64,000 nucleotides of DNA, taken from sequence record PV730299.1; one strand, given 5' to 3'. A program made the position numbers and the translations under genes. Positions 10,959 to 64,000 of the stretch are shown piece by piece (position 1 is the first letter of the stretch; each line of letters starts with the position of its first letter). The notes below the pieces were generated by a model, which saw only the letters and a program-made list of their open reading frames with translations, was not told where the DNA came from and ran no database searches. The DNA is from a phage.

Positions 10959-13715
10959 ATGAAAATGCGCAAGTCCGAGCACTTTATCCGCTCGTCGTCT
11001 TCCATTCAGGGGCAGGCGTTCAACGTTAAAATGAACGATAAGATGTTTGAGACTCTGTTCTCATCATTGTATCGTTACAAAGAGGCTGCAGCCCTGCGCG
11101 AAACCGTCTGTAACGCCATCGACTCCCATGGCATGCGTGATCGTATGCACCGTGTGATGGCATCCCACTACGCGCCTCTCACTCCCCCTCCTGCCCGCCA
11201 CAGCAAATACCTTGCACCGAAGGGTAAGCAGGTTGTTGTGCATCTACCTGATGACTTTGAGCCATGGCTGGAAATCCGTGATTACGGCATCGGTCTGCCA
11301 CTTGAGAAGATCATTGGTGAGCCTATCCCAGCACAGGAAGATGAGGTGCTGCTGGAAGGCAACATGGTGGTCAAGGAAGATGAGATCCCTGACTCAGCTG
11401 AGGTCATCGGCGTGCCTGCGTTCTATAATGGTGGTCTAGTGTTCCGTCGCGAAGATGGTGAAATCATTCGTACGCCTGGGTTGTATACCACTCTCTTCCA
11501 CAGTACGAAGGAAGAAGATGATGATCAGATTGGGGCATTCGGTCTTGGCTCCAAATCACCATTTGCGGTATCGGATTCGTTCACTGTGGAAAGCCGCATG
11601 GACGGTAAACTCCATCGCTTCCTGATGTACCTGAATGCCAAGCGCATCCCGACTGTTGATCTGATCACCAAAGATCTTGAAACCCGTGATCCTAAGCCGG
11701 AAGACACCGATGAGTTCAACGGCATGACGGTGAAGATCCCGGTGAAGAACGCTCGCTTCTCCGCATTCTCCGATGAGCTGGTTCGCCTTGGTCGTGTTAT
11801 ACGCCCTGAACAACGTCCAATTGTTGAGAACGCTTCATACCGCTTCGGCTGGGAAGATATCAGTTATGAATTCAAGGTCAATAACACATACATCCAGCCG
11901 AAAGGCCAGGGGAACATCCATTATGCTGTAATGGGTGGCGTGTCGTACCCGATTGACCTGGACCAGCTGGACCCGGACACTGCTTCCATCATGAGCAAGT
12001 TTCCATCGTCCTATACGTTCTTCGAACTCGGCTCGCTGAACGTACCACCGTCGCGTGAAGACCTTTCATATGACGAATTCACGCGTGAGACGCTCTCTGA
12101 GGAGTTTAAGGGCACCGCCAATGCAATCTTGACAGAAAAGATGCGTGACCTGGAGCTGGCGTGTAAGCGTGGTCCTCTTGCCCTGTATATGGAGAAGGTA
12201 AAACTGAGTGAAATGTTCGGCAGTGGGTTCCGCAAGATGGTTGAAAAGGAATACCCGGCAGACAAGCGCTTTCATGATTCATATTACCGTTACCCGCTGC
12301 CTGTTGAGATCGACCGTGACTATGACCACACCGCGCCGTTCAATGAATTGTCATCGCCGTTCTCTATGGAGATCTTCTATGACTGGGGTGAGTCCAGTAA
12401 TTTGACCATTTCAGAAATCCAGAAGTGGATTGATCGCGGCCAGCATGTTACTGTGGTGATCGAAGATAGTGTTCGTGCTCGTAACCTGAAGATCAAGCAG
12501 CTGAAAGATACAGGGACGATAGTCATCGTGGCCAAGCCGAACACATCCTATGTCACCAAGCGCAACCAATCTAAGGACAACCCTGCGTTCAAGAATTCTC
12601 AGGCTCTCTATGATTTCTTTGAAACTTGGATTGGTAAAGAAGAAACGACGGTTGATTATCTGTGCTTCGCCGACAAGTTCGTCGATTGGCTGAGTGCGGT
12701 GTTGGAGCCTGCTGAAGTCAAGTTCATGAACGAACTGTCGTATGTCACGCCCCCGGTCACCAAAGACCCTGGCCTGTTTCCGTTCACGCGCAGCAACTTC
12801 GACATATACCAGTATGAAGAACTAACGGGCGACCAGATCTCAGATATCATCAACAAGGGCGAGCGCATCGTCTATATTGAGGTGTCTGGCCATGCGTGTA
12901 TCCATCAGGTGATGGACAGAACGTTGACGACTGCGGCGGCGCGGGGTATTCGTAAATCTCTGTATGAGCACGCAGTCAGTGTCGACGATGAAGGCAAGCC
13001 AGTGTACATCAGCGATATGTTGAACGTTCACAACCGAATCTTCTTGGCTCGTCGTAAATCCGTGCCAATGATGAAGAAGTTCCCAGAGGTCTTCATACCG
13101 ATCGATGAAATCCTGAAGATCATGTTGGAAAACGTGAAGCCTATGATGGAGCGCGATAGCGCCAGGCGCATACTGGAATCATACCGCCGCATGCGCCTTG
13201 GGGCGGATCGATTAAAATACGGGAGCCATCTGGTTCATCAGGCGTTTGGTGATGTTGAAGACGATCGTTATGGCAAATTGGTCAGCCGTTACAACAAGTT
13301 AATGAAAGTTGTGGACGATATCTTGGATGAGCAGACTGTACGTCATTACCAAAGCCTGGCGAAAGCCCCGGTTTCAATCAATGACAAGCGTCGATTTAGC
13401 CATTTCCAGGACACAATACATTCTCTTAACGTGAATTTGTACGCCAACGAGCGTGACGAAAAGATCTTCCGTTCAGAACATCAGATGCTACAGATCTTTG
13501 AATGCGCTTCGGATGTGTTGCGGTTTCATGGATTTACACCGTTTGATATATCGAGGACTCCGTCATTGAAAGCAAGGCGGGAAAACCGATTGACCATCGA
13601 GCGTCATCGTGTTGTCCGGTTCTTGAAAGAGAATTACAAACCAAGCGCCCTGAACCCGATTGAAAAATCTTCGGATTACTTGGACGTTATTTCAAATTCC
13701 ATTATCAGGGCATAA
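10959..13715 (+). CDS. rIIA: rIIA-like protein (GHKL-type ATPase fold, membrane-associated lysis-inhibition/exclusion protein)
   Basis: N-terminal FETLFSSLYRYKEAAALRETVCNAIDSHG and AFGLGSKSPFAVSDSFTV align from memory to T4 rIIA (FKILSSDLYTNK...MIDAH and GGFGLGSKSPFSYTDTF). Confidence 0.85.
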   Translation: MKMRKSEHFIRSSSSIQGQAFNVKMNDKMFETLFSSLYRYKEAAALRETVCNAIDSHGMRDRMHRVMASHYAPLTPPPARHSKYLAPKGKQVVVHLPDDFEPWLEIRDYGIGLPLEKIIGEPIPAQEDEVLLEGNMVVKEDEIPDSAEVIGVPAFYNGGLVFRREDGEIIRTPGLYTTLFHSTKEEDDDQIGAFGLGSKSPFAVSDSFTVESRMDGKLHRFLMYLNAKRIPTVDLITKDLETRDPKPEDTDEFNGMTVKIPVKNARFSAFSDELVRLGRVIRPEQRPIVENASYRFGWEDISYEFKVNNTYIQPKGQGNIHYAVMGGVSYPIDLDQLDPDTASIMSKFPSSYTFFELGSLNVPPSREDLSYDEFTRETLSEEFKGTANAILTEKMRDLELACKRGPLALYMEKVKLSEMFGSGFRKMVEKEYPADKRFHDSYYRYPLPVEIDRDYDHTAPFNELSSPFSMEIFYDWGESSNLTISEIQKWIDRGQHVTVVIEDSVRARNLKIKQLKDTGTIVIVAKPNTSYVTKRNQSKDNPAFKNSQALYDFFETWIGKEETTVDYLCFADKFVDWLSAVLEPAEVKFMNELSYVTPPVTKDPGLFPFTRSNFDIYQYEELTGDQISDIINKGERIVYIEVSGHACIHQVMDRTLTTAAARGIRKSLYEHAVSVDDEGKPVYISDMLNVHNRIFLARRKSVPMMKKFPEVFIPIDEILKIMLENVKPMMERDSARRILESYRRMRLGADRLKYGSHLVHQAFGDVEDDRYGKLVSRYNKLMKVVDDILDEQTVRHYQSLAKAPVSINDKRRFSHFQDTIHSLNVNLYANERDEKIFRSEHQMLQIFECASDVLRFHGFTPFDISRTPSLKARRENRLTIERHRVVRFLKENYKPSALNPIEKSSDYLDVISNSIIRA

Positions 13716-13746: not shown

Positions 13747-15309
13747 ATGAACAAGATTGACGAAAAGATCCTGAAGTATTTGAAGGAAGGCAAAAGCCAG
13801 AGTGCAATTGCTACTCTGTTGGGCATACCCCGCTCGACTGTACAACGTGTTGCAGACACGGAACTCGGTGTCAACCCGTTATCGCTGAAATCTCTTACCA
13901 CTGAAGAGATTCAGCAGATTCAGATGAAGAGCAAGGCTGGTGAAAGCAACCGTGCCCTGGCTGAGTTCTTTGCTGTAAGCGCCAAGACGATCGCCCGTGC
14001 CCTGTTGGTCCGCATTACCGAGGAGGAAAACAAGGTAACTGTGATCTCTCCTATCAAGCCGGAAGAGCAGGAAGTATTCGAGGTCCAACCGGGCGGCACG
14101 GCCAAAGACAAAGATGGCACAGAATGGTATGTTGGGGCATATCTGCCGAACCACAACAAGTATCTGTGTCTCACTAACAACGGCAATTTCAAAGGGGCTT
14201 TCTTTGAAAAGTCTGAATTGACTCCTGTGGAAGGTGATAGTTGCGCTTTCGATGTTGAAGCTATCGGCGAGATGGCAGAAATTTCTGTGGCACTGTCAGA
14301 AGGTGCGGACAAAGTTCCGAGCAACGTTGAAATCAGCGTTGTGGTTGACGGGGAAACCTATCCTATCCGTGGATCCTTGGATGCCCGTCGCCGTGTTGGT
14401 TACTTTGATGGCATCCTCGGTCGCACCCTGCGTCTGGCTCTGTCTTCTGTAGAATTCGCCGTCGCTGTCAAAGACGTTGAAGAAGTGGCTGATGATAAGA
14501 AGACCAAGCAGGACTTCGGCGCGAAAGACCTGGACGTGTTCCTGAACGAACACCAGATCCTGATTCTTCCTGACAGCGTTGTTATCGCGATTGACGGCAA
14601 GCCGGAAACGATCACCACTTCACACCCGGCCTATGACCGCATCGTACAGGCGATCAAAGACAAAGACGTGAAGCTGGCATACTCGCTGATGCGCCCCCGT
14701 GAAGCCATCGCGAAGTACGCTGCTGGTCTGGTAGACGTGTCTGACAACCGTGTCCGCTGGTCTGGCCATGACATCACAGGCACATCCATCGCCAAGCGTG
14801 TACTGGCGCTGATGCTGAAGGGTGACTTCCACAACCTGGACCGCATGGCGAAGTTTATGGACAAAATGTTCCAGAACCCGTCAGCTTCTCTGGTTCAGTC
14901 TGGGCGCATCTATGAGTTCATGGCGTACTCTGACATCGAAATTGACGACGATGGTGACATCATCCTCTACAAATCGGTGCGCGGCAACTACATGGACAAG
15001 CACAGCAACACGATCAGCAACGCCCCAGGCACTATCGTGCGGATGGCTCGCTCATTCGTGAACGACAACAACTCTGAACTGTGTTCATACGGTTTGCACG
15101 TTTGCTCCCTGGCCTACCTGAAGGAGTGTTTCGGTTCTGTTGGCCAGCGCGTCGTTCGCTGTAAGCTGAACCCGCGTGATATCGTGTCGGTCACCGATGA
15201 TTTTGGTTCAAGCAAAATCCGCTGCTGTGAATACCTGGTGTTGGATGACTACACCGCTGAGTACAACCGCCAGCACAAGTCTATTGACGTGACAGGCCTG
15301 TACAAGTAA
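13747..15309 (+). CDS. rIIB: rIIB-like protein with N-terminal HTH extension
   Basis: C-terminal YKSVRGNYMDKHSNTISNAPGTIVRMARSFVNDNNSELCSYGLHVCSLAYLKECFGS..RVVRCKLNPRDIVSV matches T4 rIIB; the N-terminus has an HTH-like GIPRSTVQRV. Start set at ATG 13747 (track ORF from 13660 overlaps rIIA). Confidence 0.85.
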   Translation: MNKIDEKILKYLKEGKSQSAIATLLGIPRSTVQRVADTELGVNPLSLKSLTTEEIQQIQMKSKAGESNRALAEFFAVSAKTIARALLVRITEEENKVTVISPIKPEEQEVFEVQPGGTAKDKDGTEWYVGAYLPNHNKYLCLTNNGNFKGAFFEKSELTPVEGDSCAFDVEAIGEMAEISVALSEGADKVPSNVEISVVVDGETYPIRGSLDARRRVGYFDGILGRTLRLALSSVEFAVAVKDVEEVADDKKTKQDFGAKDLDVFLNEHQILILPDSVVIAIDGKPETITTSHPAYDRIVQAIKDKDVKLAYSLMRPREAIAKYAAGLVDVSDNRVRWSGHDITGTSIAKRVLALMLKGDFHNLDRMAKFMDKMFQNPSASLVQSGRIYEFMAYSDIEIDDDGDIILYKSVRGNYMDKHSNTISNAPGTIVRMARSFVNDNNSELCSYGLHVCSLAYLKECFGSVGQRVVRCKLNPRDIVSVTDDFGSSKIRCCEYLVLDDYTAEYNRQHKSIDVTGLYK

Positions 15310-15325
15310 CCAAACCCCATCCACC

Positions 15326-15348
15326 AAGGAGGCTCCGGCCTCCTTTTC
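15326..15348 (+). terminator. rho-independent terminator after rIIB
   Basis: AGGAGGC / GCCTCCT stem, tetraloop TCCG, then TTTT. Confidence 0.7.
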
Positions 15349-15534
15349 AGTTCGAAGGCGAGACCAGGGAATACTCCCACAAGAACTTTCCTCCCCGTGA
15401 AGTTCATGAACAACAGTTCGTGAAATTGTTCTGTCGCTGTGGTGGGTGTGATTTCACGGATGATGGTTACGCGATGCACGTATACTGCTGCAATTGCTGT
15501 GGTAAATACGTAACAGTCTATAGGAGAACCGAAC

Positions 15535-15960
15535 ATGGCGAAGAAACCTGAAGTCAAGAAAGTTGAAATTAAAACCGAAGCCCCAGTCGATGACATCCAG
15601 GCGAAGGAGGAAGGTGTGTTGCCTACCTACCTACAACGCGCCATCGATAACATCCCTCCAGGGGGAGACGGAGGCGTCGTCTACGCTGGCGGGTACGGTT
15701 GGGTGTGCGAATACCAAGACGGCACGAAGGAACTCCTCCAGGAGCTTCCAGGGCTGGCTGCGACCCTCAAGCGTTATGGTCGCGACAAGTTCGGCAAGCC
15801 GTTTGAAACCGGGGCTGTGATTGAAACTAACATCACAGTCGAGACTCTGAACCTGCTGGGTGAAGATGATCTCAAGTTGTTGGCTGCGCCGCTGGGTATC
15901 ACAGAAGAAGATCGCATTCAGCTGATTGCGAAGCTGATCGAAAAATTGCAGATTAAATAA
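15535..15960 (+). CDS. hypothetical protein
   Basis: 141-aa ORF with AGGAGA 7 nt upstream. Confidence 0.5.
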   Translation: MAKKPEVKKVEIKTEAPVDDIQAKEEGVLPTYLQRAIDNIPPGGDGGVVYAGGYGWVCEYQDGTKELLQELPGLAATLKRYGRDKFGKPFETGAVIETNITVETLNLLGEDDLKLLAAPLGITEEDRIQLIAKLIEKLQIK

Positions 15961-30130: not shown

Positions 30131-31099
30131 ATGGCCGACTTCAAGAAGACAATCGATAAGATCAAGGTTCTGAACACGAAGGGATTGTCCCAGGCTCAGA
30201 AGCAATTGTCTTATCCCCTGGACGTCACTGGGGGTAAGACATTAGGACACTATGTCCTATTCAACATCAACCGTATCTCCGGTTCATCTTATGGCAACAC
30301 GGCTACTCAGACTATCGAGAACCCAATACAGAACCCTCTGGGGAATACTCCTGTGGTCTATGGGTCCAAGTCTGGTTCCATCACCAAATATGCATGGGCG
30401 CGTCACGTTCGTTCAAACGAGTCTATCGTACTTTGTATGCCCGAGTCCATTACAACCAACTATGGCGTTGGCTGGAATGGTAGTGAGCTGGGGTTGGCTG
30501 GTATGGGGGCACAGTTCCTTTCCCGCGCCGCCCAAGACATGACTCAATTTAAACTGGGTGATGCGCTCAACGTCGGGAAGGAGATGGGGCGATTCGCTGC
30601 CACCAAGGCTATCCAATCTGCGTCGGAGGCTATTCCATTCCTGCCGAGCATTAACGCCCATGACACCCTTGAGTTGTTCACAGGCACCATGACCAACCCA
30701 TATGTGGAGATGATCTTCCAGGGTGTTCGCAACCGTGAGATTCCATTTACATTCAAATTCACGCCGCGATCTCAGAAGGAAGCCAAGATGGTCCGTGAGA
30801 TCATCCGCATGTTCAAGATGCACATGTACCCAGAGTACAAGTACAACAAGAATTCCAGCGCGTTTTACTTGCATCCTTCAACATTCGACATTACGTTCAT
30901 GGTCAATGGGGAGCGTAACCAGTGGCTGCACCGCATCTCCACTTGTGTACTTTCCAACATGTTCGTCAACGAGACGCCGGACAGTTCATACGCGGTTCAC
31001 AAAGATGATGGTATCGTGTCCACGCAGGTTGACATGACCTTCATCGAACTGGAGCCTCTACACAAAGGGCGCTTTGAAACCGAAGGCGATAGCTTCTAA
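30131..31099 (+). CDS. virion structural protein (baseplate/tail), putative
   Basis: First gene of the plus-strand block that ends with the tape-measure-like gene; no diagnostic motif. Confidence 0.45.
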   Translation: MADFKKTIDKIKVLNTKGLSQAQKQLSYPLDVTGGKTLGHYVLFNINRISGSSYGNTATQTIENPIQNPLGNTPVVYGSKSGSITKYAWARHVRSNESIVLCMPESITTNYGVGWNGSELGLAGMGAQFLSRAAQDMTQFKLGDALNVGKEMGRFAATKAIQSASEAIPFLPSINAHDTLELFTGTMTNPYVEMIFQGVRNREIPFTFKFTPRSQKEAKMVREIIRMFKMHMYPEYKYNKNSSAFYLHPSTFDITFMVNGERNQWLHRISTCVLSNMFVNETPDSSYAVHKDDGIVSTQVDMTFIELEPLHKGRFETEGDSF

Positions 31100-31110
31100 G
31101 AGAGGATGCC

Positions 31111-31665
31111 ATGAAATATTTTGAGAAGTTTCCACTTGTTTGGCATCAATTGCAAGATGTCCAAGAGAATGATCAGGTGCTGTTACAGAATTTAACGCGC
31201 CGGGTGATGATCTTACAGAAAATTAAGGACATCGAAGGGCTTCTCCTGCCGTATACGATCCAAGATGGGGAAACCCCAAGGTCTTTCGCAGAACGCGTTT
31301 ACGGATCCTTCGAGTTGTTTTGGATACCTTGTCTGATAAACGGCATCATGGACATCAATAAGGACTGGCCGAAACCGGAACGCCGTATTGTTGAAGAACT
31401 GACTGCAGATTACGGCATCGATGGTATGTGGGATACAGCCTATTATGTCGACCAGTTCAACAATGTGACCGACGCCCGTGCTATCAAATTTGCATATAAC
31501 CTAGACCTAGATGAGCCGTCCATAATTGCTAACTATGGTCTGACGGCAGTTTCATACCATGATGATGCAATCAGTAAGAATGAAGCCAAACGGAACATCC
31601 AAGTACTCGACCCAGATTATGTGTCTTCGTTTGTCAATCAGCTGGAGCAGGAGTTGGCGAAATGA
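31111..31665 (+). CDS. virion structural protein, putative
   Basis: 184 aa, coupled into the structural block; GAGAGGA upstream. Confidence 0.45.
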   Translation: MKYFEKFPLVWHQLQDVQENDQVLLQNLTRRVMILQKIKDIEGLLLPYTIQDGETPRSFAERVYGSFELFWIPCLINGIMDINKDWPKPERRIVEELTADYGIDGMWDTAYYVDQFNNVTDARAIKFAYNLDLDEPSIIANYGLTAVSYHDDAISKNEAKRNIQVLDPDYVSSFVNQLEQELAK

Positions 31666-33050
31666 TCGAAAACAGAGAGACCCAAGACGGTATTGTAACA
31701 CCGTCAACAACATTTGACCTGAAGTATATGGCGATACTCCCTCATACACCCCAGGGCGGATCACCAACGCCATATGACCTGACGGCGTTGTTTGAGGAGT
31801 TCAACGTCTTCCAGGATCTGGGTCTTGAAGGGAAGTCATCTCCATCACTTACAGCCAATGTCTTGATAAAAGAAGGGTGGGACATTCTTGACACAATGCC
31901 TATCTTGGGTGGTGAAGAAGTTGTGGTGTCATTCAAGAGTCCGGCGGCCTCGGAATATACCACTCTCTCCCTGCGCGTAGCGCGTGTTGGGCGCGTAGCT
32001 GATGAGTCCAACAGCTCGTCCAAGAAAGCATTCTGGTTGCACATGGTGACCACCGATGCCTATAAGGACAGCATGATCCGATGCTCCCTCGGTCTTGACG
32101 GTTCGTACTCTGACATGGCAAAGACAATCTTCAATCAGTTGGAGTCGCGCACCAAGTTCGAAGACATCGACCCGTCGTATGGAATTCAAGAGCGGTTCGC
32201 CACCCCGCTCTGGCCTGTGCTGCGATCTATTGATTATATGGCGAGCCGTTCTTATGACGAATTGTTCATGCCATTCGTGTTCTATGAAGACTTCAATGGC
32301 TATCACTTCAAGAGCCTGACGACGTTGTTCAACCAGGGTAGCCAGTCATTGACAGCAGAAGAGAAGCAGGAACTAGCTCAGCAGAACAAGTTGTTCCGTG
32401 ATCCTCAGGACGCGCCGCTCATGCAGGATAACAACTTCAATTCTGAGCGCTTTATGCGCACGATCATCAAGGCAGAGAAGAAGCTGGCGCGTGACCAGTT
32501 CATGGCAAACTACCGCGATGTCCTGGCGGTGAACGAGCGCGTCTACGACTTTGAGACCAAGACAGTCACCCCAACACAGCGCATCTATACTGAGTGGTTT
32601 GCAGAGACGGCTCACCTTGATCCGTTCCCGATGTTCTCAGATGAATTCAATCGTCAGAACGTCCGTTACATTGAAGCCCAGCCGGATGGAGCGGAGCAGA
32701 TTGATTATGCTCGTCGTGTTATCAACTTCAGTCTTGCCAGCACTGTGATGCGCGTGTTGCTCGTTGGTGATAACCGCCTGAACGTCGGTCAGGTGTTCTA
32801 CGTCGAAGACCAGTCCAACCGTCCTAAGAAGAACGAAAACCTGGCAGAGTTAAGTAAGCTATCGACAGGCCACTATATCGTGACCAAAGTGCGTCACAAG
32901 ATTTCCCGCCTGACCAAAGATTATCAGTGCATCGCTGAGATTGCCAAGGACAGTTTGCTGGAGCAGGTGCTTCCACCTCAGACCAATCAGACAACTGCTT
33001 CCACCACTACTCCTCAGGCGATTGAGAAAGGCCAAGCACAGAAGGTTTAA
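31662..33050 (+). CDS. virion structural protein (baseplate hub candidate), putative
   Basis: 462 aa, ATGA-coupled, immediately upstream of the tape-measure-like gene. Confidence 0.45.
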   Translation: MIENRETQDGIVTPSTTFDLKYMAILPHTPQGGSPTPYDLTALFEEFNVFQDLGLEGKSSPSLTANVLIKEGWDILDTMPILGGEEVVVSFKSPAASEYTTLSLRVARVGRVADESNSSSKKAFWLHMVTTDAYKDSMIRCSLGLDGSYSDMAKTIFNQLESRTKFEDIDPSYGIQERFATPLWPVLRSIDYMASRSYDELFMPFVFYEDFNGYHFKSLTTLFNQGSQSLTAEEKQELAQQNKLFRDPQDAPLMQDNNFNSERFMRTIIKAEKKLARDQFMANYRDVLAVNERVYDFETKTVTPTQRIYTEWFAETAHLDPFPMFSDEFNRQNVRYIEAQPDGAEQIDYARRVINFSLASTVMRVLLVGDNRLNVGQVFYVEDQSNRPKKNENLAELSKLSTGHYIVTKVRHKISRLTKDYQCIAEIAKDSLLEQVLPPQTNQTTASTTTPQAIEKGQAQKV

Positions 33051-33061
33051 CGAGGTGACCC

Positions 33062-35008
33062 ATGGCACAGGAAGCAACGAACAATGATGTTGTCAAAGTT
33101 CTAGACAAGATCAAGGCGGAGATGATGCAGCGCAAACAACTCCGCGCTCAGAATGAAACCAACAGACAGCTTGACCGGATGAACAAGAATCTGGCCAAGC
33201 TGGAATCTGCCACTAAACAGGGCACCAAGGCCGAGTCCAAGCCATTTGAAATCCGTATCCCGACAGTCAATGAGATCGTCATGGGATTCGCTCGCATGTC
33301 TCCGATCTTCACCCGCGACTTCAGCGTATGGATGAAGGATACTGTCGATGTGGGTAACGAAGGCAATCGGGAACTGGAGAATATCGCAGGCAAGATTGAC
33401 CGCCTCGGTGAGATCACCCGCATGCCAACAGATGACACGTCCCTGGAGTATCTTAACCTGATCTCAGACCAGCTGAAGTCTGCCAATGATGACACCCTCA
33501 AGCGCATGGACGAGCAGAGTGTGTCTCTGGTCCGCGTGGGATCATTCTTGAACATGATCGACGGAGTGATGATCGAGGTTCGTGACGATGTTGCTGAACT
33601 GAAAAAGAACTCCGATGACACCCTTACTCGCTTGTCTAGCATTGAAAACAAGATTGGACGCACGGGCGGTCATATCGTTGGAGTGTTGACACGCATCTTT
33701 GATGAAGACCAGAAGTGGCGTGAGAAGGACGAGATGCGCCGTGGGGAAACCGACAAAGAAACGGGTGGTCATCCTCAGGCGGGTTCTGTTATACCCAAAG
33801 ACGATGACCAGAAAGACGATTCCTCCGGTATCGGGGCTGCTGTGGCGGCCATGCTTGGCCTGAATGCACTGAAGGGCTTCTTGCTCAAGCCGTTCAAGAT
33901 CATCGGTGGTGTTGTCGGGACTTTCCTCGGCATGTTTTCCAAGCTGGGAGAAGGTATCACCAAACTTCTGGGTCCATTTGGGAAGGTGTTTAAGTTCCTG
34001 AAAGTCGGCCCACTGGCTCTCCTGTCTATGATCTGGGACTTCGGTAAAGGCTTCATTGATGCGAAGGAGATCCTGGGTAAAGGTGCTGTCACGATAGTTG
34101 ACCGAGTACGGGCGGGGATATCAGAACTGGTTGGTGGATTTGGTGATCTATTTGACTGGGTGTCCAAGATCTTTGGCTTTGATACCGAGGCGGGTGAAAC
34201 CCTGCGCAAATACACCCTCATGATCACTGAGGCTCCCTCTCGTTGGCTGAATGGTATTATCGACTGGATTAGCAACGACTTGTTTGCAGGGATCGGGAGA
34301 GACACGTCTCTTACGGATATCCCTGGCAAGTTAGCAGACAACCTACAGTCCGAGTTGATAAAGCTGGTAGACTGGATCACAGGGGGTATCAGTAGTGTGA
34401 TCGACGAGGGCATGGGTGTGGCCAACAAGGTCATTGACGATATCAAGAAGGGATTTGCCGAAAATGTGAAGAAACCTTTCTTCAACATGCTGAACACAAT
34501 CACCAATGCGATGTTCGATATCGTTGACAAGTTCGTCAGCATCATCCCTGACGCTCTGGGTGGACAGGCTGCGAAGCAGAAGATGGATGAGGCTCGCCAG
34601 TCTATGCTGATTGACACTGATGAGAATCCATCTCCTAATGTGACAGAGACCCAGCAGCCACAGACGCCAGCACAACCGAACATCGATCCACAAACGCTGA
34701 CTCCAATACCTTCTGGTGCGTCTTCGGATGACAAGAATATGACTAATGACCGCACCTCTCAGCTGAAAGCTGCGTATGGTTCTATCGGGGGTGGTACTCT
34801 GGGCGGGGCGATGCCATCACAAGGGAGGGCGCTGTCTAATATTGAACAAGTACAAGGCGGCTATTCACCGCCTCCAGCCAGCGTCGTGATGCCAGTACAG
34901 CAGAATGTGGATGCTTCTAAGAGGATCAACACGACCAATAACTTCAACAGCTCATATCTTGAGCCTGAGAACAAAACAGATAATTCCCGCATCCTGTGGG
35001 AATGGTAA
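33062..35008 (+). CDS. tail tape-measure / tail-length determinator-like protein (T4 gp29-like)
   Basis: Coiled-coil-rich N-terminal half, central Gly-rich hydrophobic segment (GIGAAVAAMLGLNALKGFLL ... GGVVGTFLGMF) and a low-complexity C-terminus. Confidence 0.5.
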   Translation: MAQEATNNDVVKVLDKIKAEMMQRKQLRAQNETNRQLDRMNKNLAKLESATKQGTKAESKPFEIRIPTVNEIVMGFARMSPIFTRDFSVWMKDTVDVGNEGNRELENIAGKIDRLGEITRMPTDDTSLEYLNLISDQLKSANDDTLKRMDEQSVSLVRVGSFLNMIDGVMIEVRDDVAELKKNSDDTLTRLSSIENKIGRTGGHIVGVLTRIFDEDQKWREKDEMRRGETDKETGGHPQAGSVIPKDDDQKDDSSGIGAAVAAMLGLNALKGFLLKPFKIIGGVVGTFLGMFSKLGEGITKLLGPFGKVFKFLKVGPLALLSMIWDFGKGFIDAKEILGKGAVTIVDRVRAGISELVGGFGDLFDWVSKIFGFDTEAGETLRKYTLMITEAPSRWLNGIIDWISNDLFAGIGRDTSLTDIPGKLADNLQSELIKLVDWITGGISSVIDEGMGVANKVIDDIKKGFAENVKKPFFNMLNTITNAMFDIVDKFVSIIPDALGGQAAKQKMDEARQSMLIDTDENPSPNVTETQQPQTPAQPNIDPQTLTPIPSGASSDDKNMTNDRTSQLKAAYGSIGGGTLGGAMPSQGRALSNIEQVQGGYSPPPASVVMPVQQNVDASKRINTTNNFNSSYLEPENKTDNSRILWEW

Positions 35009-49438: not shown

Positions 49439-50383
49439 GTGGAAGACTATCGCAATTTTATCACACAGATATTACAGCGGGGCTTGTCGCGCAAGAACCG
49501 CTTCAGAGTGACCATCCCTCTACCACCAGGGATCTTTGACTCCAATGCCACTCTGGCTAATGACGGAAAGGCGTACAGAACCAATTCATCTTTTGGTGAC
49601 TTGTTTAAGCAGTCAGCCCGTATTGTAAACGCTTTCTTTGGAGGGACAAACCAGACGTCCCGTTCCCTTCAGATGATGTGTATGGTTGCCTCATTGCCAG
49701 GGGTTGGTATCGACACCACTCCAATGACAAACAACGGTAATCACATCAAGATGCCGAACAACAAGTCCAACGTCGACCTCGACTTGTCATTCTTATTAGC
49801 CAATGACTATTATGAGAAGTCTGTGATGGACAAGTGGAAGAGTCTGATCTTTGATCCACACACCACCAAAATGGGATATTACGAAGACTTCGTGACTGAC
49901 ATATGCATTGAACAGCTTGACACCGAAGATCAAGTGGTCCACCGCGTCTACATCGTCGAGGCTCACCCAATAAATTTCAGTTCTATTGAGCTGGATAAAG
50001 GCGCCACAGACCAGTTCAACCAATACAACATTTCTTTCTCTTACAATAAAGTGCTTTCGGAGACAGAATATGAAACACGCAGCCTTTCCAGCGATTTTCT
50101 TCCTCTCGGCATTGCTGACGCTCTTACCAGTGGTGACTGGGAAACTGCGGCCTCAAAAGCTGGACAGCTTTATCGCAAGGTGAAAGAAGGGAACTTCACA
50201 GGAGAGGCTCTCCTGGCTTACAAACAGCTTGACCAACTTGTAAACAACCTGGCTGGGATAAGCATACAGGACTTCGAGCGCATCTCGGTAGGTATCTCTC
50301 GTGACATCATGGGTAACGATAACCTGACGGCGGCGGAGAAGACAAGCCTGTTGGGAATATTACAAGACGTGATGGGGAAATAA
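49439..50383 (+). CDS. virion structural protein, putative (late gene)
   Basis: GTG start with GGAG 9 nt upstream; TATAAATA motif 35 nt upstream; followed by a bidirectional terminator. Confidence 0.5.
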   Translation: MEDYRNFITQILQRGLSRKNRFRVTIPLPPGIFDSNATLANDGKAYRTNSSFGDLFKQSARIVNAFFGGTNQTSRSLQMMCMVASLPGVGIDTTPMTNNGNHIKMPNNKSNVDLDLSFLLANDYYEKSVMDKWKSLIFDPHTTKMGYYEDFVTDICIEQLDTEDQVVHRVYIVEAHPINFSSIELDKGATDQFNQYNISFSYNKVLSETEYETRSLSSDFLPLGIADALTSGDWETAASKAGQLYRKVKEGNFTGEALLAYKQLDQLVNNLAGISIQDFERISVGISRDIMGNDNLTAAEKTSLLGILQDVMGK

Positions 50384-53190: not shown

Positions 53191-53682
53191 TTAACGGGTG
53201 ATGATTTTGCTATCAGGCAGGATCAGACCAGGGTGGTCCAGGTTCTTCTGCATCTGTTGGATACTCTGCAGGATCACGGTAGTGTCGATGTGGCGTTTCA
53301 CTTTGCGCGCTTCATCACCGTAGGAGATCTGCCCCTGAGGATCGATGTAGTGGGCTGTCACAACCTGCAGATCATAACCACACTTGATCAGGTACTTGGC
53401 AATGTTGCTAACTTCGAGAGACAGGGACTCACCGTCCACACCGATGTTGGCTGAGTAGACGATTACGCCATTTTCTACTGCTTTTGGTTCAAACAAAACC
53501 ATACCAGCGATCGTCTGGATCAAAGGAACTCCCTCGGTATCGAAAGCCACCTGATCGAACGCACCGATGAACTCATCCGGCACTTTACCTTCGGCATCAG
53601 AAACTGTGTGTTTCATAAGGTCCAGGACGTGTTGTTGTACTTCCTCAATCGGAGCACGTTCAACGGGTTTTTCGTTTTGCAT
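53191..53682 (-). CDS. hypothetical protein
   Basis: Start set at ATG 53682 with GGAG 7 nt upstream; the track's 53793 start would overlap the upstream gene by 134 nt. Confidence 0.45.
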   Translation of the reverse strand: MQNEKPVERAPIEEVQQHVLDLMKHTVSDAEGKVPDEFIGAFDQVAFDTEGVPLIQTIAGMVLFEPKAVENGVIVYSANIGVDGESLSLEVSNIAKYLIKCGYDLQVVTAHYIDPQGQISYGDEARKVKRHIDTTVILQSIQQMQKNLDHPGLILPDSKIITR

Positions 53683-54190
53683 TACTTTTCTCCAGTTCAT
53701 AATCGCGCTCCACAACGTATTGGTAGACACGCATCTTAATATAGTCAGCACTGCCTGCTGAAGACAGTACCATCCATCCACTACTAAGGGCATTCATCTT
53801 ATATTGACCAACACCCTCTTGAAAATAACTTTTAATCTGTTCCAGCTTTCGCCCACGATGATAATACGAGATGAGTTCGCCGATGACAATACAATCTGGA
53901 TAATGCTTTTCCAATGTATTGATGTTGCGGTGAACATATACGGGTAGAACTTCTTCATCGTCGATAGGGCTGTAGTATGGGTCTACGATGACCACTTGTA
54001 GACCATAACGCAGCAGGTCTTTGACACCCAGCCGACAGAACTTATAATCTTCGTGTTTCATTGCCACATGGAGGATATTCTCTTTCTTGGCATAATCGGT
54101 CAGGAAGATAAAGAAGTCTGTGTTGGGATCGGGATATTGTATAGACAGTTCTTTGCCTATTTCACTAAAACAAAATCCGCGCATTTTCAT
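53660..54190 (-). CDS. hypothetical protein
   Basis: 176-aa ORF, first gene of the minus-strand group. Confidence 0.5.
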   Translation of the reverse strand: MKMRGFCFSEIGKELSIQYPDPNTDFFIFLTDYAKKENILHVAMKHEDYKFCRLGVKDLLRYGLQVVIVDPYYSPIDDEEVLPVYVHRNINTLEKHYPDCIVIGELISYYHRGRKLEQIKSYFQEGVGQYKMNALSSGWMVLSSAGSADYIKMRVYQYVVERDYELEKSNAKRKTR

Positions 54191-54233
54191 TCCTCGTTAT
54201 AATTACTCTTACAATATACCGTGGAGATACATT

Positions 54234-55040
54234 ATGAATTTACCATCATTGCCCAGAACAGAAAAGACATATAAAAGCGACTTTTGGCCTACTGTGATCA
54301 AATATCGCGCCTTTACTGCGGGGCAACAAACTTTATTACTTCAGGTGTCAGATCCGCAAACGCCGATTGAAGAACGCGCGGCCATGATGGAGAGTCTCTT
54401 TAGCGAGTGTGTAAATGCAGGCGCACCTTTCAGTAAACTGCCAATCGGCGTTGTTGAGGAAGTGTTCATCCGCATGCGCATGATCTCCATCGGTGAATTG
54501 ATGAAGATTCGTTATAAGTGCAATAATCAGATTGAAGAAACGATCGATCTGGGAGATGGTCAAGAAAAGCACCAGATGGTTCCCTGTGAGCAGGAACTGA
54601 CTCTACCTATCCCGTTGAACAATGTCAAATGCATTGCTCAGGACGGCTTCCGGGAAACATTTGACCTGCCAGGTGGATATCACCTCAAGATGCGCCAACC
54701 TTCCTTCTCGGACGCTACGGCACTGTCTGATGCTGCAAGTGTTGAGATGATGCTGGCCACCTTTATCGACTGTCTGTACGATGATGACGGTCAGGTGTGG
54801 AAGGTTGAGAATCCTGAAGAAATCGGAATCACTCCAGAAGAGGCTACTGAGCGCCGCCGTGTGAAAGAAGCGTTTGTTGAGTGGGTGAAGGATAACATCG
54901 AATCAGATGTTATTGACAGCATTACGAAGAACTTCTTCCACAAAATACCGCGCATCCACTACAAGAGTTCGATCAAGTGTCCGAAATGTGGTAAGGAGCA
55001 CAAAATCGAATTCAATAGTATTAATGAAATTTTCATTTAA
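54234..55040 (+). CDS. hypothetical protein with C-terminal zinc ribbon (possible baseplate-associated)
   Basis: GGAG 7 nt before ATG 54234; C-terminal CPKCGKEH; lies upstream of the gp5-like gene. Confidence 0.5.
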   Translation: MNLPSLPRTEKTYKSDFWPTVIKYRAFTAGQQTLLLQVSDPQTPIEERAAMMESLFSECVNAGAPFSKLPIGVVEEVFIRMRMISIGELMKIRYKCNNQIEETIDLGDGQEKHQMVPCEQELTLPIPLNNVKCIAQDGFRETFDLPGGYHLKMRQPSFSDATALSDAASVEMMLATFIDCLYDDDGQVWKVENPEEIGITPEEATERRRVKEAFVEWVKDNIESDVIDSITKNFFHKIPRIHYKSSIKCPKCGKEHKIEFNSINEIFI

Positions 55041-55189
55041 TGTTTGAAACTGATTTATTATCCTACTTCGTGATGTGTGATGAATTGAAGTTACACGGCT
55101 ATAGCATATTTGAAATCAACGAGTCGATGCCATGGCATCTTGACTTGTTAACCGAAGCCCTCAAGGTCAGGTTGTCTAAGAAACAGTAA
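55040..55189 (+). CDS. small ORF (49 aa), putative
   Basis: TAATG overlap with the upstream gene; the stop is followed immediately by the strong terminator at 55189-55212. Confidence 0.3.
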   Translation: MFETDLLSYFVMCDELKLHGYSIFEINESMPWHLDLLTEALKVRLSKKQ

Positions 55190-55212
55190 TCCCGCTTCGG
55201 CGGGATTTTTAT
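55189..55212 (+). terminator. rho-independent terminator
   Basis: ATCCCGC / GCGGGAT stem, tetraloop TTCG, then TTTTATT. Confidence 0.75.
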
Positions 55213-55256
55213 TGGCTTAACTGCAAAATAGGTTAACACGCGTTCTCTTTACCTAA

Positions 55257-55268
55257 AATTGTTATAAT
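55257..55268 (+). promoter_or_regulatory. extended -10 promoter-like element (TGtTATAAT)
   Basis: ATTGTTATAATG in the 340-nt non-coding region upstream of the gp5-like gene; no convincing -35. Confidence 0.25.
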
Positions 55269-55510
55269 GGGCTTGTTCCCGAGTCATTTGTTGGTGTTTG
55301 TCTGTTTTGAATCAGATTGTCAGTAAAATACCATTTTTCAAGGAGTGTTCTGGGGTGTACAGTTATTGCCTCGCCCTTATGCCTCCATGGCATTGGAATG
55401 GTGCTGCCCGCATAGGGCGGTTTGATGAGCGAAGCGAATAGGATCGAATAAAACAAATAAAATGAACGGAAGCAGAGCTTCCTATAGTATATAAGGCAAA
55501 ATCAGCTGCG

Positions 55511-55518
55511 CATAAATA
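55511..55518 (+). promoter_or_regulatory. late promoter-like motif CATAAATA (one mismatch)
   Basis: 35 nt upstream of the gp5-like start at 55553, the same spacing as the motif at 49397. Confidence 0.25.
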
Positions 55519-55552
55519 CCTTCAAATCCTTGTTTGACAACCGGAACTCAAT

Positions 55553-57163
55553 ATGTTAGACAATATGAGATGGTTTTACGGCACCGTTGAAGATGTCAAC
55601 GATCCAGACCAAAACGGGCGCGTCGCCGTCCGCATATATGGCGTACACACCGACGATCCCGTCCTCCTGCCTACAGACAAACTCCCATGGGCGAAGGTAC
55701 TGATGCCTGCTTCTAACGCCTCCTCTGCTGGTTTAGGTTGGTCTCCAACGGGTATCATTCCTGGTACTGAGGTTATGGGGTTCGCCCTTGACGAAGCATA
55801 CCAGAATTTACGCATCACCTGGACTTGGACTGGTTCAAGCCCTACTGATGGCGCCGACACAAACCCGCTGGCTCTCGGGCAGGTCGTTCAATCTGTAGAA
55901 CGTCAGGCGTACAACGCTGTCACTGACGTTCCTGTGAAACAAGAAGACGAACCACAACCAGATCCACAACCACCTGTTGGTGGGTATGATCCAGAGAAGT
56001 GGATGACAATCGCTCGTGGCGAATTGGGTATCAAGGAGTACGCCGGAAAGTTCAATAACAACCCGCGCATTATAGAATATCACAAGACAACCTCCCTTGG
56101 TGCTTCTGAAGATGAAGTGTCGTGGTGTGCGGCGTTCGTGGGTTGGGTTATGATACAGGCTGGATACACGTCTACACGCTCCGCTCTTGCCCGATCTTAC
56201 CTTACATGGGGCACTGCACTGTCAGCACCACAATATGGCGCTATCGTAGTCTTCCGGCGTGGTAACAACCCTACATTTGGACACGTAGCGTTTGTGCAGA
56301 AGTTCGATGCAAACTATGTCTGGTGTATTGGTGGCAACCAATCCGATTCAGTGAAGGTCAGTCGTTTCAGACGTTCTTCGGTCTTGGGATATCGTTGGCC
56401 TGGTCCTGCTAACACAGCCACAGCCGCGCCTGCGCAGCAGAATGGTAAATGGTCAGAACCTATCCCAGATCGTACTCCAAAGGAACAACCGACTCCGGCT
56501 CCTACTGGGCGAGTACAGGATATTGACAACACTGGAGAAACCATGGTTCCGGCTGCGGGTGGCTCTAAATACCCGTACAATAACGTCATGGTGTCCCGAG
56601 CTGGGCATATTATGGAAGTGGATGACACCCCTGGTGGTGAACGTCTTCATTGGATGCATAAGTCTGGGTCTTACAAGCAAATGTTGCCGGATGGTGATGT
56701 GGTCAACAAGTCCGTCAAAGACCACTATGACCTGACGATGTTCAACAAGCGTTATTATGTCGGCGGGGACCACAACCTGACGGTCAAAGGAACTGAAGTT
56801 CAGCGCAAGACAGGTGAGGTCTATCATTTGCATTCCAACAATTACTCCAACGTGGTTGCGGGCACAGCGCTGATGAAATTCAGTGACCTAGCCGAGTTTC
56901 AAGCGCAGAATATTCTGCGCATTATCTGCGAGACTCTGGAGGTCGGTGGGACATTGAAGGTTCCTAAGATTCTAACGACTGAGATCATCGCTGACAAACT
57001 GACTGTCGCTCAGACGATCAATGGTAACATCATATATGCCGAAGGTGCTGGTCGCGCTTCTTCTCTGTCAGGTGCAACCCCTGCATCCCCTACGGGTCCG
57101 GGTGAGATTGACATCAAGGCAGAATTAAAAGACAATGGTGGTAATTTCGGCACCAAAGAGTAA
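55553..57163 (+). CDS. 5: baseplate hub / cell-puncturing protein (gp5-like) with central CHAP peptidase domain
   Basis: N-terminal OB-like segment WFYGTVEDVNDPDQNGRVAVRIYGVHTDD ... LPWA; central Cys/His pair (SWCAAFVGW ... GHVAFV) typical of CHAP amidase/peptidase; C-terminal repeat-like region. Confidence 0.65.
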   Translation: MLDNMRWFYGTVEDVNDPDQNGRVAVRIYGVHTDDPVLLPTDKLPWAKVLMPASNASSAGLGWSPTGIIPGTEVMGFALDEAYQNLRITWTWTGSSPTDGADTNPLALGQVVQSVERQAYNAVTDVPVKQEDEPQPDPQPPVGGYDPEKWMTIARGELGIKEYAGKFNNNPRIIEYHKTTSLGASEDEVSWCAAFVGWVMIQAGYTSTRSALARSYLTWGTALSAPQYGAIVVFRRGNNPTFGHVAFVQKFDANYVWCIGGNQSDSVKVSRFRRSSVLGYRWPGPANTATAAPAQQNGKWSEPIPDRTPKEQPTPAPTGRVQDIDNTGETMVPAAGGSKYPYNNVMVSRAGHIMEVDDTPGGERLHWMHKSGSYKQMLPDGDVVNKSVKDHYDLTMFNKRYYVGGDHNLTVKGTEVQRKTGEVYHLHSNNYSNVVAGTALMKFSDLAEFQAQNILRIICETLEVGGTLKVPKILTTEIIADKLTVAQTINGNIIYAEGAGRASSLSGATPASPTGPGEIDIKAELKDNGGNFGTKE

Positions 57164-57236
57164 GTTGGTATAAGTTTAGTGGCAGAGGGACAGCACGTCT
57201 CTCTGCTCCTTATAGGCATCCTGAGAGGATCGCGAA

Positions 57237-57617
57237 ATGAAAGAGTATAAAGATGTCGATCTGAAGTTCGGCATGCATCCGGTGACCAAAGACGTCACTA
57301 TGAAATCAGGTGTGTATGCTGTCTTACAATCCGTGCGGAATATCGTCATGTCTTCAGTCGGGGACTGGCCCACTTATCCTGGGATCGGCGCGGGGCTTTA
57401 TGGGCTGTTGGGTGAAAACACGACACCGACTATCCAGGTAGATGTGAAGAACAAAGTAGAGGACGCTATCGCCCTGTATGAACCCAGAGCAGAGGTAGAA
57501 GAAGTCACGGTGAGTCTGTCAGAGGATTACCATTCTCTGGGCGTGACCATCACATTCTATGTGGTCAACAATCCAGATCCAATAACAGACACCGTGTGGT
57601 TGAAAAGGACGAATTAG
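57237..57617 (+). CDS. 25: baseplate wedge protein (gp25/GPW family)
   Basis: 126 aa; blocks DAIALYEPRAEVEEV and ITFYVVNNPDPITDTV align to T4 gp25 (RNYEPRIDKL ... SVIDNPDDIE). Confidence 0.8.
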   Translation: MKEYKDVDLKFGMHPVTKDVTMKSGVYAVLQSVRNIVMSSVGDWPTYPGIGAGLYGLLGENTTPTIQVDVKNKVEDAIALYEPRAEVEEVTVSLSEDYHSLGVTITFYVVNNPDPITDTVWLKRTN

Positions 57618-59874: not shown

Positions 59875-59944
59875 GTTTCTTTCCTGATTAATAAGGGGTG
59901 ATCTCTCACCCCTGATGATATAACGGTAGTAGGTTTAGACCAAT

Positions 59945-63153: not shown

Positions 63154-63255
63154 GGGAACCTTCCTATATCTCAGGGTGTCATCACCTCTAATTAAGGTGA
63201 CAACCCCAGCATACCTGAGGATTGGATAAAGAAAAGGCCGTTTCCGGCCTTTGAG

Positions 63256-64000
63256 TTAACTGAAACTCTTGTATGCTGCTGCGAGCTTCTTGTCGTACTG
63301 GTTCTTGGCATACGCCGGACCATTATAGCGCCGTGCAAATTCAGACCAGTTCTTGTCCTTCAGAGCCTGCCAGAGCTTGGCGTCAGCCTTGATGAACTTC
63401 ACGAATGCCATCAAATGAGCACGTTCTCCTGTCAGGAAGTCGTTGAACATCTCCTTGGCGTTGGCATATCCACAGACCTGGCAGTTGAATCCCATGATCT
63501 GGAAGAGACCGTAAGAGGCGCTCTCGTACGCACAATCCTCATCGATGTTGATGGCCGCATGAAGTCGATCCAACTCCGCGTCGCCTCCCGTGTACCCGCC
63601 TGCAGAAGGGTTGACCAACGTCGGGTACATATGTCCCATGGCATTCGCCCGAGCCTGTCCGAACTTCGCCATCAACTTCTTATACATGATGTGGCGCTCA
63701 AATAATGTCTTGATCTTACCTGACTTGGTGAAGCCCGTGCCGCGCGACTCAACCTGATTCACCGCCTTGACAGAGGCAAGGTCAACACCCAGATCGTTAG
63801 CAGCATCAATCAGGTCTGACTCAGTTAGATGATCCTGATGGGCGTCTCCAGCGTTGCGAATAGCATAGGAGGTCTTTGGACCCACGATACCATCAATGAC
63901 AAGCCCCGCACCCGCCTGAACAGTCTTGACGGCGTTCTCTGTTGCCTTGCCAAAGATACCATCAGCGACGAGGGTGAAGCCGATTTTGTTGAGGCTATCC
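63256..64000 (-). CDS. endolysin: N-terminal peptidoglycan-binding domain plus muramidase/lytic-transglycosylase-like catalytic domain; 5' end beyond window
   Basis: The frame stays open to the window edge; upstream of the GTG reported by the track it encodes DGIFGKATENAVKTVQAGAGLVIDGIVGP (PG_binding_1 signature). Catalytic-domain motifs ESRG, YGLFQIMG and YNGPAY. Confidence 0.7.
   Translation of the reverse strand, partial: DSLNKIGFTLVADGIFGKATENAVKTVQAGAGLVIDGIVGPKTSYAIRNAGDAHQDHLTESDLIDAANDLGVDLASVKAVNQVESRGTGFTKSGKIKTLFERHIMYKKLMAKFGQARANAMGHMYPTLVNPSAGGYTGGDAELDRLHAAINIDEDCAYESASYGLFQIMGFNCQVCGYANAKEMFNDFLTGERAHLMAFVKFIKADAKLWQALKDKNWSEFARRYNGPAYAKNQYDKKLAAAYKSFS

Follow-up and report, generated by a model that had tools for sequence, protein, structure and literature searches.

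We analyzed a 64,000-nucleotide (nt) stretch of phage DNA (sequence record PV730299.1; the whole stretch is referred to here as the window), focusing on an open reading frame (ORF) that a preliminary description had called a gp5-like cell-puncturing protein with a CHAP peptidase domain. The ORF starts with ATG, encodes 536 amino acids (aa) and, with its stop codon, spans exactly 55553..57163 on the plus strand. Its match to PHROG 430 (E = 2.3e-154) and its identity to annotated gp5 genes mark the product as a gp5-type baseplate central spike or hub protein, hereafter the spike protein. The sequence shares 99.6% identity with gp5 genes annotated in Agtrevirus-like phages, 96.8% with gp5 of Shigella phage Ag3, 93% with LIMEstone1 gp5 and 85% with CBA120 gp5 over 535 aa; this last alignment is ungapped, so that the two proteins share their residue numbering. 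In a protein search, 280 phage records covered at least 80% of its length. The 12 kb surrounding the gene are 98–99% identical to Enterobacter phage fGh-Ecl02 and Escherichia phages A221, PC3, RPN242 and AV101, and 93% identical to Ag3 (Ackermannviridae, Aglimvirinae, Agtrevirus). Judged by these identities, the window derives from an Agtrevirus-like, that is Vi1-like, member of the Ackermannviridae, and high full-length identity together with kept synteny with Ag3, LIMEstone1 and CBA120 places the spike protein in the gp5 orthologous group of this family.

By its sequence matches, the spike protein follows the plan of T4 gp5, with the enzymatic cassette swapped at the same position. The N-terminal OB-fold domain (aa 1–96; 55553..55840; all segments lie on the plus strand) is matched by Pfam Gp5_OB over aa 39–96 (E = 1.9e-12; 48.1 bits, cut-off 25), has predicted beta strands over aa 6–92, and aligned over aa 3–93 with T4 gp5 residues 6–101 (1K28, 1PDL; domain E = 8.9e-15) in a sequence search of the PDB, which confirms the gp5-type signature proposed earlier for this end of the protein. 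A Pro/Glu-rich linker (aa 97–147; 55841..55993) precedes the central domain, and a Pro-rich second linker (aa 286–336; 56408..56560) follows it. Both are predicted to be disordered, with predicted local distance difference test (pLDDT) values below 50 over aa 94–143 and 290–343, respectively, in a full-length AlphaFold model. In T4 gp5, the maturation cleavage (gp5*/gp5C) falls in the linker between enzyme domain and needle, and the second linker would be the positional counterpart of that segment. The gp5C-like needle region (aa 337–486; 56561..57010; monomer pLDDT 63–80 over aa 350–460) aligned over aa 338–430 with T4 gp5 residues 385–475 (domain E = 2.6e-13) and with residues 385–464 of the central spike 9F4A (E = 6.5e-14). 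Homology to T4 gp5C is confined to ~90 residues at the start of the needle, with divergence after about aa 430, and the region presumably forms a triple-stranded beta-helix. The C-terminal tail (aa 487–536; 57011..57160) is predicted to be disordered (pLDDT <50) and shows 70% mean identity in the family. All three structures, 1K28, 1PDL and 9F4A, match the spike protein solely across the OB domain and the first part of gp5C, in two stretches that are not contiguous. The full-length model, which was used for domain boundaries and disorder only, resolves the segments as OB (aa 6–92), linker (94–143), enzyme (148–285), linker (290–343), needle (343 to ~465) and tail (487–536).

Where T4 gp5 has its lysozyme, the spike protein has a TIGR02594/CHAP-type papain-like cysteine peptidase domain (aa 148–285; 55994..56407). 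The NCBIfam profile TIGR02594 matched it end to end (aa 150–282, profile positions 2–132 of 132; E = 1.1e-37; 129.3 bits, cut-off 70.55), and Pfam CHAP matched aa 187–262 (E = 6e-11; 43.1 bits, cut-off 26). Pfam NLPC_P60 gave no match to the spike protein, and no lysozyme family appeared in the Pfam scan at E values up to 1. Likewise, no part of the spike protein aligned with the T4 gp5 lysozyme domain in the PDB sequence search, and the fold matches of the enzyme domain contained no glycosidase. The preliminary description had proposed a Cys/His pair in a CHAP-like context in place of a lysozyme, a different solution from that of T4, and had named a glycoside hydrolase as the alternative; the profile and fold comparisons agree with the former and speak against the latter.

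Both motifs quoted in that description are present, SWCAAFVGW at aa 190–198 and GHVAFV at aa 243–248, and they contain the predicted nucleophile Cys192 (codon 56126..56128) and the predicted general base His244 (codon 56282..56284). Asn262 (codon 56336..56338), in a GGNQ motif, is the predicted third polar residue, giving a putative Cys192-His244-Asn262 triad. When the 113 homologous domains collected by the protein search were aligned, all three residues were invariant (113/113), as were Gln263 and Glu162. An AlphaFold model of aa 140–300, built with 46 homologues (mean pLDDT 87.4; predicted template modelling score, pTM, 0.84), has a papain-like alpha+beta fold in which Cys192 lies at the N-terminus of helix 191–202 and His244 begins strand 243–251, as in papain-like peptidases. 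Asn262 follows strand 255–261 and, according to the model, should face His244 across the hairpin. Aligning the trimmed domain profile with MepS in hhalign placed Cys192 and His244 on the catalytic Cys and His and left the third residue unaligned. The comparison with the LysK CHAP domain gave a local match of only 33 columns in which the register of the third catalytic residue is doubtful, and the two alignments place this residue in conflicting registers; for both references, MepS and LysK, the sequence used was verified by published residue numbers only. The His-to-Asn spacing in the spike domain is 18, so that the third residue is an Asn at His+18, in contrast to the His at +12 in MepS-type enzymes. 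A profile search of the PDB was swamped by GH108 and PG_binding_3 fusion-partner domains and revealed nothing about individual residues of the peptidase domain. The enzyme domain is CHAP-like by sequence and nearer to NlpC/P60 by fold, two branches of the same superfamily; the label that describes it exactly is TIGR02594.

Conservation within the family, measured on 22 full-length members, peaks in the enzyme domain, with 84% mean identity and no indels, compared to 76% for the gp5C-like part, 71% for the OB domain and 59% for aa 431–486. Free-standing homologues (45–57% identical) have PG_binding_1, LysM or GH108 lysozyme domains as fusion partners, and type VI secretion system (T6SS) effectors of Stenotrophomonas that combine LysM with TIGR02594 are predicted peptidoglycan degraders. 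The window also encodes a separate endolysin candidate, a PF11860 N-acetylmuramidase (63256-63885, minus strand; E = 2.8e-59). Together, the conservation of the domain, its fusions to murein-related domains, its occurrence in T6SS effectors and the separate endolysin support the view that the spike domain is an active, virion-borne peptidoglycan peptidase. A catalytically dead module, kept in the spike as a structural or peptidoglycan-binding spacer or anchor, is a very improbable alternative. Catalysis by the spike domain is itself a prediction from sequence, and growth in the laboratory does not always require a virion lysin, as illustrated by the T7 gp16 transglycosylase, whose activity is required only under some growth conditions. 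However, degenerate domains usually lose their catalytic residues, whereas Cys, His and Asn are kept in every one of the aligned homologues and the enzyme domain is the best conserved, indel-free part of the protein. We therefore rejected a degenerate domain on the invariance of the catalytic residues.

The gene lies within a baseplate neighborhood. Upstream is a gp26-like baseplate hub subunit (54231..55040, plus strand; Pfam T4_baseplate, E = 1e-46; PHROG 150 'baseplate hub'), for which the ATG at 54231 was preferred over the GTG at 54120 because the Pfam match begins past Met38, and downstream is a gp25-like baseplate wedge subunit (57237..57617, plus strand; Pfam GPW_gp25, E = 3.1e-8; PHROG 261 and 43). 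This gp26-gp5-gp25 order is common to Ag3, CBA120, LIMEstone1, phiMAM1 and KN2-1. Mass spectrometry identified the LIMEstone1 gp5 orthologue (ORF61) as a virion protein with two unique peptides, and the ViI orthologue was likewise found by virion proteomics, as reported by Kutter et al. (2011; PMC3184105). These data bear on whether the ORF could instead be a mis-annotated endolysin or a secreted toxin and not a virion spike. TIGR02594 domains do occur in genes annotated as endolysins in some smaller phages and in T6SS effectors, but the homology of the OB and gp5C segments to T4 gp5, the placement between gp26 and gp25, the detection of the LIMEstone1 orthologue in virions and the presence of a separate muramidase endolysin effectively refute this explanation. 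Identity as the phage endolysin was rejected on the last of these points. The enzymes of entry and exit are thus unrelated, since the endolysin candidate belongs to PF11860; in T4, by contrast, the tail lysozyme gp5 and the endolysin gpe are paralogues. For CBA120, Kutter et al. (2011; PMC3184105) noted that a lysis enzyme was still to be identified.

Other baseplate genes lie elsewhere in the window. A gp54-like gene is found at 49439-50383, and a second cluster (30131-35008) comprises gp48-like and gp53-like genes, a 462-aa 'tail protein' and a 648-aa protein. The 462-aa product (31662..33050, plus strand; PHROG 350 'tail protein', E = 1.2e-98) is a candidate gp27-like hub subunit. It had no Pfam or PDB sequence match, and its gene sits after gp48 and gp53 and before the tape-measure gene. 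The virion proteome of LIMEstone1 lists ORF26 as 'baseplate hub subunit (T4 gp27)' of 52.6 kDa and a tape-measure protein of 71 kDa, with the same gene order and matching sizes. Directly after the gp26-like gene, a 49-aa ORF (55040-55189, plus strand) belongs to PHROG 9633 (E = 2.9e-39; function unknown); in Pseudomonas phage Cygsa01, the small gene at the syntenic position bears the annotation 'putative baseplate hub assembly catalyst' (gp51-like).

Taken as a whole, the locus is, with high probability, best explained as encoding the gp5 spike of an Agtrevirus-like myovirus that carries a TIGR02594 papain-like peptidase, not a GH24 lysozyme, and would use it to open the murein. In the mechanism that we infer, which extends to catalysis, the bond cleaved, trimerization and the time and place of action, the OB domain would dock onto the gp27-like hub, as presumed for this module, and would be followed by the flexible linker, the enzyme, the second linker and the gp5C-like needle. 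Sheath contraction would push the needle through the outer membrane, by which three enzyme domains would reach the periplasm, and local hydrolysis of amide bonds in the peptide moiety of peptidoglycan would then create a hole for the tail tube.

Several points weigh against this explanation. Literature searches found no enzymatic assay of the spike protein or of any TIGR02594 domain, which is mentioned at the level of annotation only, and no biochemical or structural study of the enzyme domain of an Ackermannviridae spike. For the domain alone, the best sequence match in the PDB reached E = 0.16, its structural neighbors are at most 23% identical, and the Asn262-His244 placement was read from the DSSP register of the model. 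The full-length AlphaFold monomer scored a pLDDT of 61.6 with almost no strands assigned beyond aa 386, a poor result that we ascribe to the expected intertwined trimer. The assignment of the product of 31662..33050 as the gp27-like partner of the spike is suggested by size and gene order. Finally, the domain does not reveal its bond specificity, since its sequence places it with one sub-branch of the superfamily (Pfam CHAP) and its fold with another (NlpC/P60).

As to the target bond, the balance tips modestly toward gamma-D-Glu-meso-diaminopimelic acid (mDAP) within the stem peptide, which would make the enzyme a D,L-endopeptidase. This preference comes from the structural neighbors, most of the top ones of which cut gamma-D-Glu-mDAP, and Kutter et al. 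(2011; PMC3184105) likewise assumed this cleavage. The same active spike hydrolase might instead cut another bond, either as a D,D-endopeptidase acting on the D-Ala-mDAP cross-link or as an N-acetylmuramoyl-L-alanine amidase, as some CHAP domains do, which we consider possible and the less likely choice; a smaller share of the probability falls to some further bond. Cleavage of peptidoglycan cross-links, as put forward in the preliminary description, is accordingly conceivable without being the best-supported option, and the peptidase assignment of that description is supported apart from bond specificity.

The closest described counterpart is the gp5 protein of Escherichia phage CBA120, for which Kutter et al. 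(2011, Virol J 8:430; PMC3184105; section 'Baseplate Lysozyme') reported that a TIGR02594/CHAP domain at aa 150–282 replaces the lysozyme and that regions resembling T4 gp5 lie on either side of it, at aa 3–109 and 334–437. This CBA120 protein has the same domain boundaries as computed for the spike protein in the window, and its gene shows the same gp26-gp5-gp25 synteny. The gp5 proteins of CBA120 and Salmonella phage ViI (Kuttervirus) differ from the spike protein by sequence divergence at the species or genus level only, with no difference in architecture. T4 gp5 (1K28, 1PDL, 5IV5) shares the order of OB domain, enzyme and needle and the baseplate hub gene neighborhood. Its GH24 lysozyme, however, cuts the glycan strand, whereas the predicted peptidase of the spike protein should cut the peptide part, and the needle region in the window is shorter than that of T4.

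More distant relatives differ in their carriers or in their biological setting. The NlpC/P60 enzymes (MEROPS C40) Acd24020 of C. difficile (7CFL), LytE and CwlO of B. subtilis, SagA of E. faecium and MepS of E. coli are 10–23% identical to the spike domain; these NlpC/P60 relatives are cellular autolysins and not virion components. Cysteine-peptidase lysins at a hub or tip have been solved for the diffocin Hub-Hydrolase CD1368 (8V3W), the CHAP hub of Staphylococcus phage 812/K (9EUF, 9EUM) and the tail-tip lysin gp10 of phage Andhra (8EJ5), but these act on Gram-positive targets from other carrier scaffolds and are not gp5 orthologues, and the staphylococcal examples are canonical C51 CHAP domains. 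A TIGR02594-type domain is present in 540 phage records. Relatives with 33–43% identity are found in Vibrio phage ICP1 and in myoviruses of Rhizobium/Agrobacterium, where the carrier gene is annotated as gp5, and in Pseudomonas phages, where it is endolysin-like; across other phages and T6SS, TIGR02594 proteins differ from the spike protein in carrier and delivery route.

The cargo carried behind gp5-type OB domains varies among homologues from other phages and metagenomes. Some of these proteins combine OB with TIGR02594/CHAP and lack a needle (319–333 aa), one (P0026) combines OB with NlpC/P60, and several others have no recognizable enzyme domain. Another homologue (P0057) pairs a GH46 domain with PF21277, which we take to be the family of the T4 gp5 C-terminal domain, and Pseudomonas phage Cygsa01 encodes a gp5-like protein of ~1130 aa containing a TIGR02594-type domain. 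This variety indicates a cassette-exchange position in the spike and portrays gp5 as a modular carrier with exchangeable enzymatic cargo, a property that bears on how phages breach the cell wall and on the mining of virion-associated lysins as Gram-negative antibacterials. Variation is also seen at the other end of the protein. The gp5 orthologues of Serratia phage 3M, Erwinia phage phiEa2809 and their relatives reach 605–617 aa through an additional 70–80-aa C-terminus that is absent from the spike protein in the window (cf. 57161-57236). This extension is of low complexity, rich in Ser and Ala, and ends in a short hydrophobic segment; it had no Pfam match and no likeness to PAAR was seen, and it may represent an alternative spike tip.

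The exchange of lysozyme for a peptidase has been known for the gp5 family since 2011, and as a general principle, given the report on the CBA120 orthologue and the solved hub and tip cysteine peptidases elsewhere. In a 2017 review, most virion-associated lysins are glycosidases, with P5 of phi6 as the sole demonstrated endopeptidase among phages of Gram-negative hosts, and a 2024 review of the Ackermannviridae nowhere mentions gp5, lysozyme or peptidoglycan. The database label 'tail lysozyme' for the spike protein is chemically wrong; the NCBI name of one family member already reads 'TIGR02594 family protein'. What remains of interest is this label and an enzyme domain for which we found no biochemical or structural study. 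A more far-reaching proposal, that the spike enzyme acts in a way undocumented for tailed phages of Gram-negative hosts, through unusual bond specificity or with the swap as an adaptation, appears doubtful. In the latter case, entry would no longer be sensitive to Ivy and MliC/PliC, which inhibit lysozyme in the periplasm of Enterobacteriaceae, or to superinfection exclusion of the Spackle type directed at the gp5 lysozyme.

Upstream of the spike gene, a leader of ~340 nt on the plus strand is free of ORFs (55211-55552), unusually long for a compact genome. It extends from a strong terminator (55188-55207), located after the 49-aa ORF, to the gp5 ATG and holds blocks conserved across Ackermannviridae genera. 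A T4-late-promoter-like element, CATAAATA (55511..55518, plus strand), lies 34 nt upstream of the ATG and does not vary among six Ackermannviridae genera; LIMEstone1 has a 'putative late promoter' annotated at the corresponding site. The leader further contains a promoter-like TTACCTnAAATTGnTATAAT near 55250-55268, a conserved block of ~60 nt (approximately 55343-55405) that includes TTATGCCTCCATGGCATTGGAATGG, and a hairpin, GGAAGCAGAGCTTCC (55468-55482), in which Klebsiella phage KN2-1 has U-A where the others have A-U, a compensatory change. RNAalifold, applied to the leader in six sequences, returned 20 pairs with double changes and an unfavorable covariation term, and a scan against Rfam found nothing near any gathering score. 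This stretch could represent a small RNA or a 5′ leader with a regulatory role, for which the evidence of RNA structure is weak.

A perfect sigma-70 consensus promoter (TTGACA, 16 nt, TATAAT; 12/12) was found on the plus strand at 54021-54048, just upstream of the gp26-like gene and within the divergent minus-strand ORF 53660-54190. Its position ahead of gp26, a presumed late structural gene, is unexpected; at the corresponding site in LIMEstone1, the annotation gives a late promoter. The longest-ORF calls for the minus-strand genes 53191-53793 and 53660-54190 overlap by 134 nt. In the annotation of Ag3, these two genes have later start codons and overlap by ~23 nt, and the true starts in the window are probably internal. 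Two further differences from Ag3 were observed. The window lacks the small ORF that Ag3 carries between nrdB and nrdA (Ag3 locus 11323-11616; 59875-59944 in the window), and it lacks the putative homing endonuclease located after phoH in Ag3 (Ag3 locus 14946-15608; 63154-63255 in the window), so that the muramidase gene directly follows phoH.

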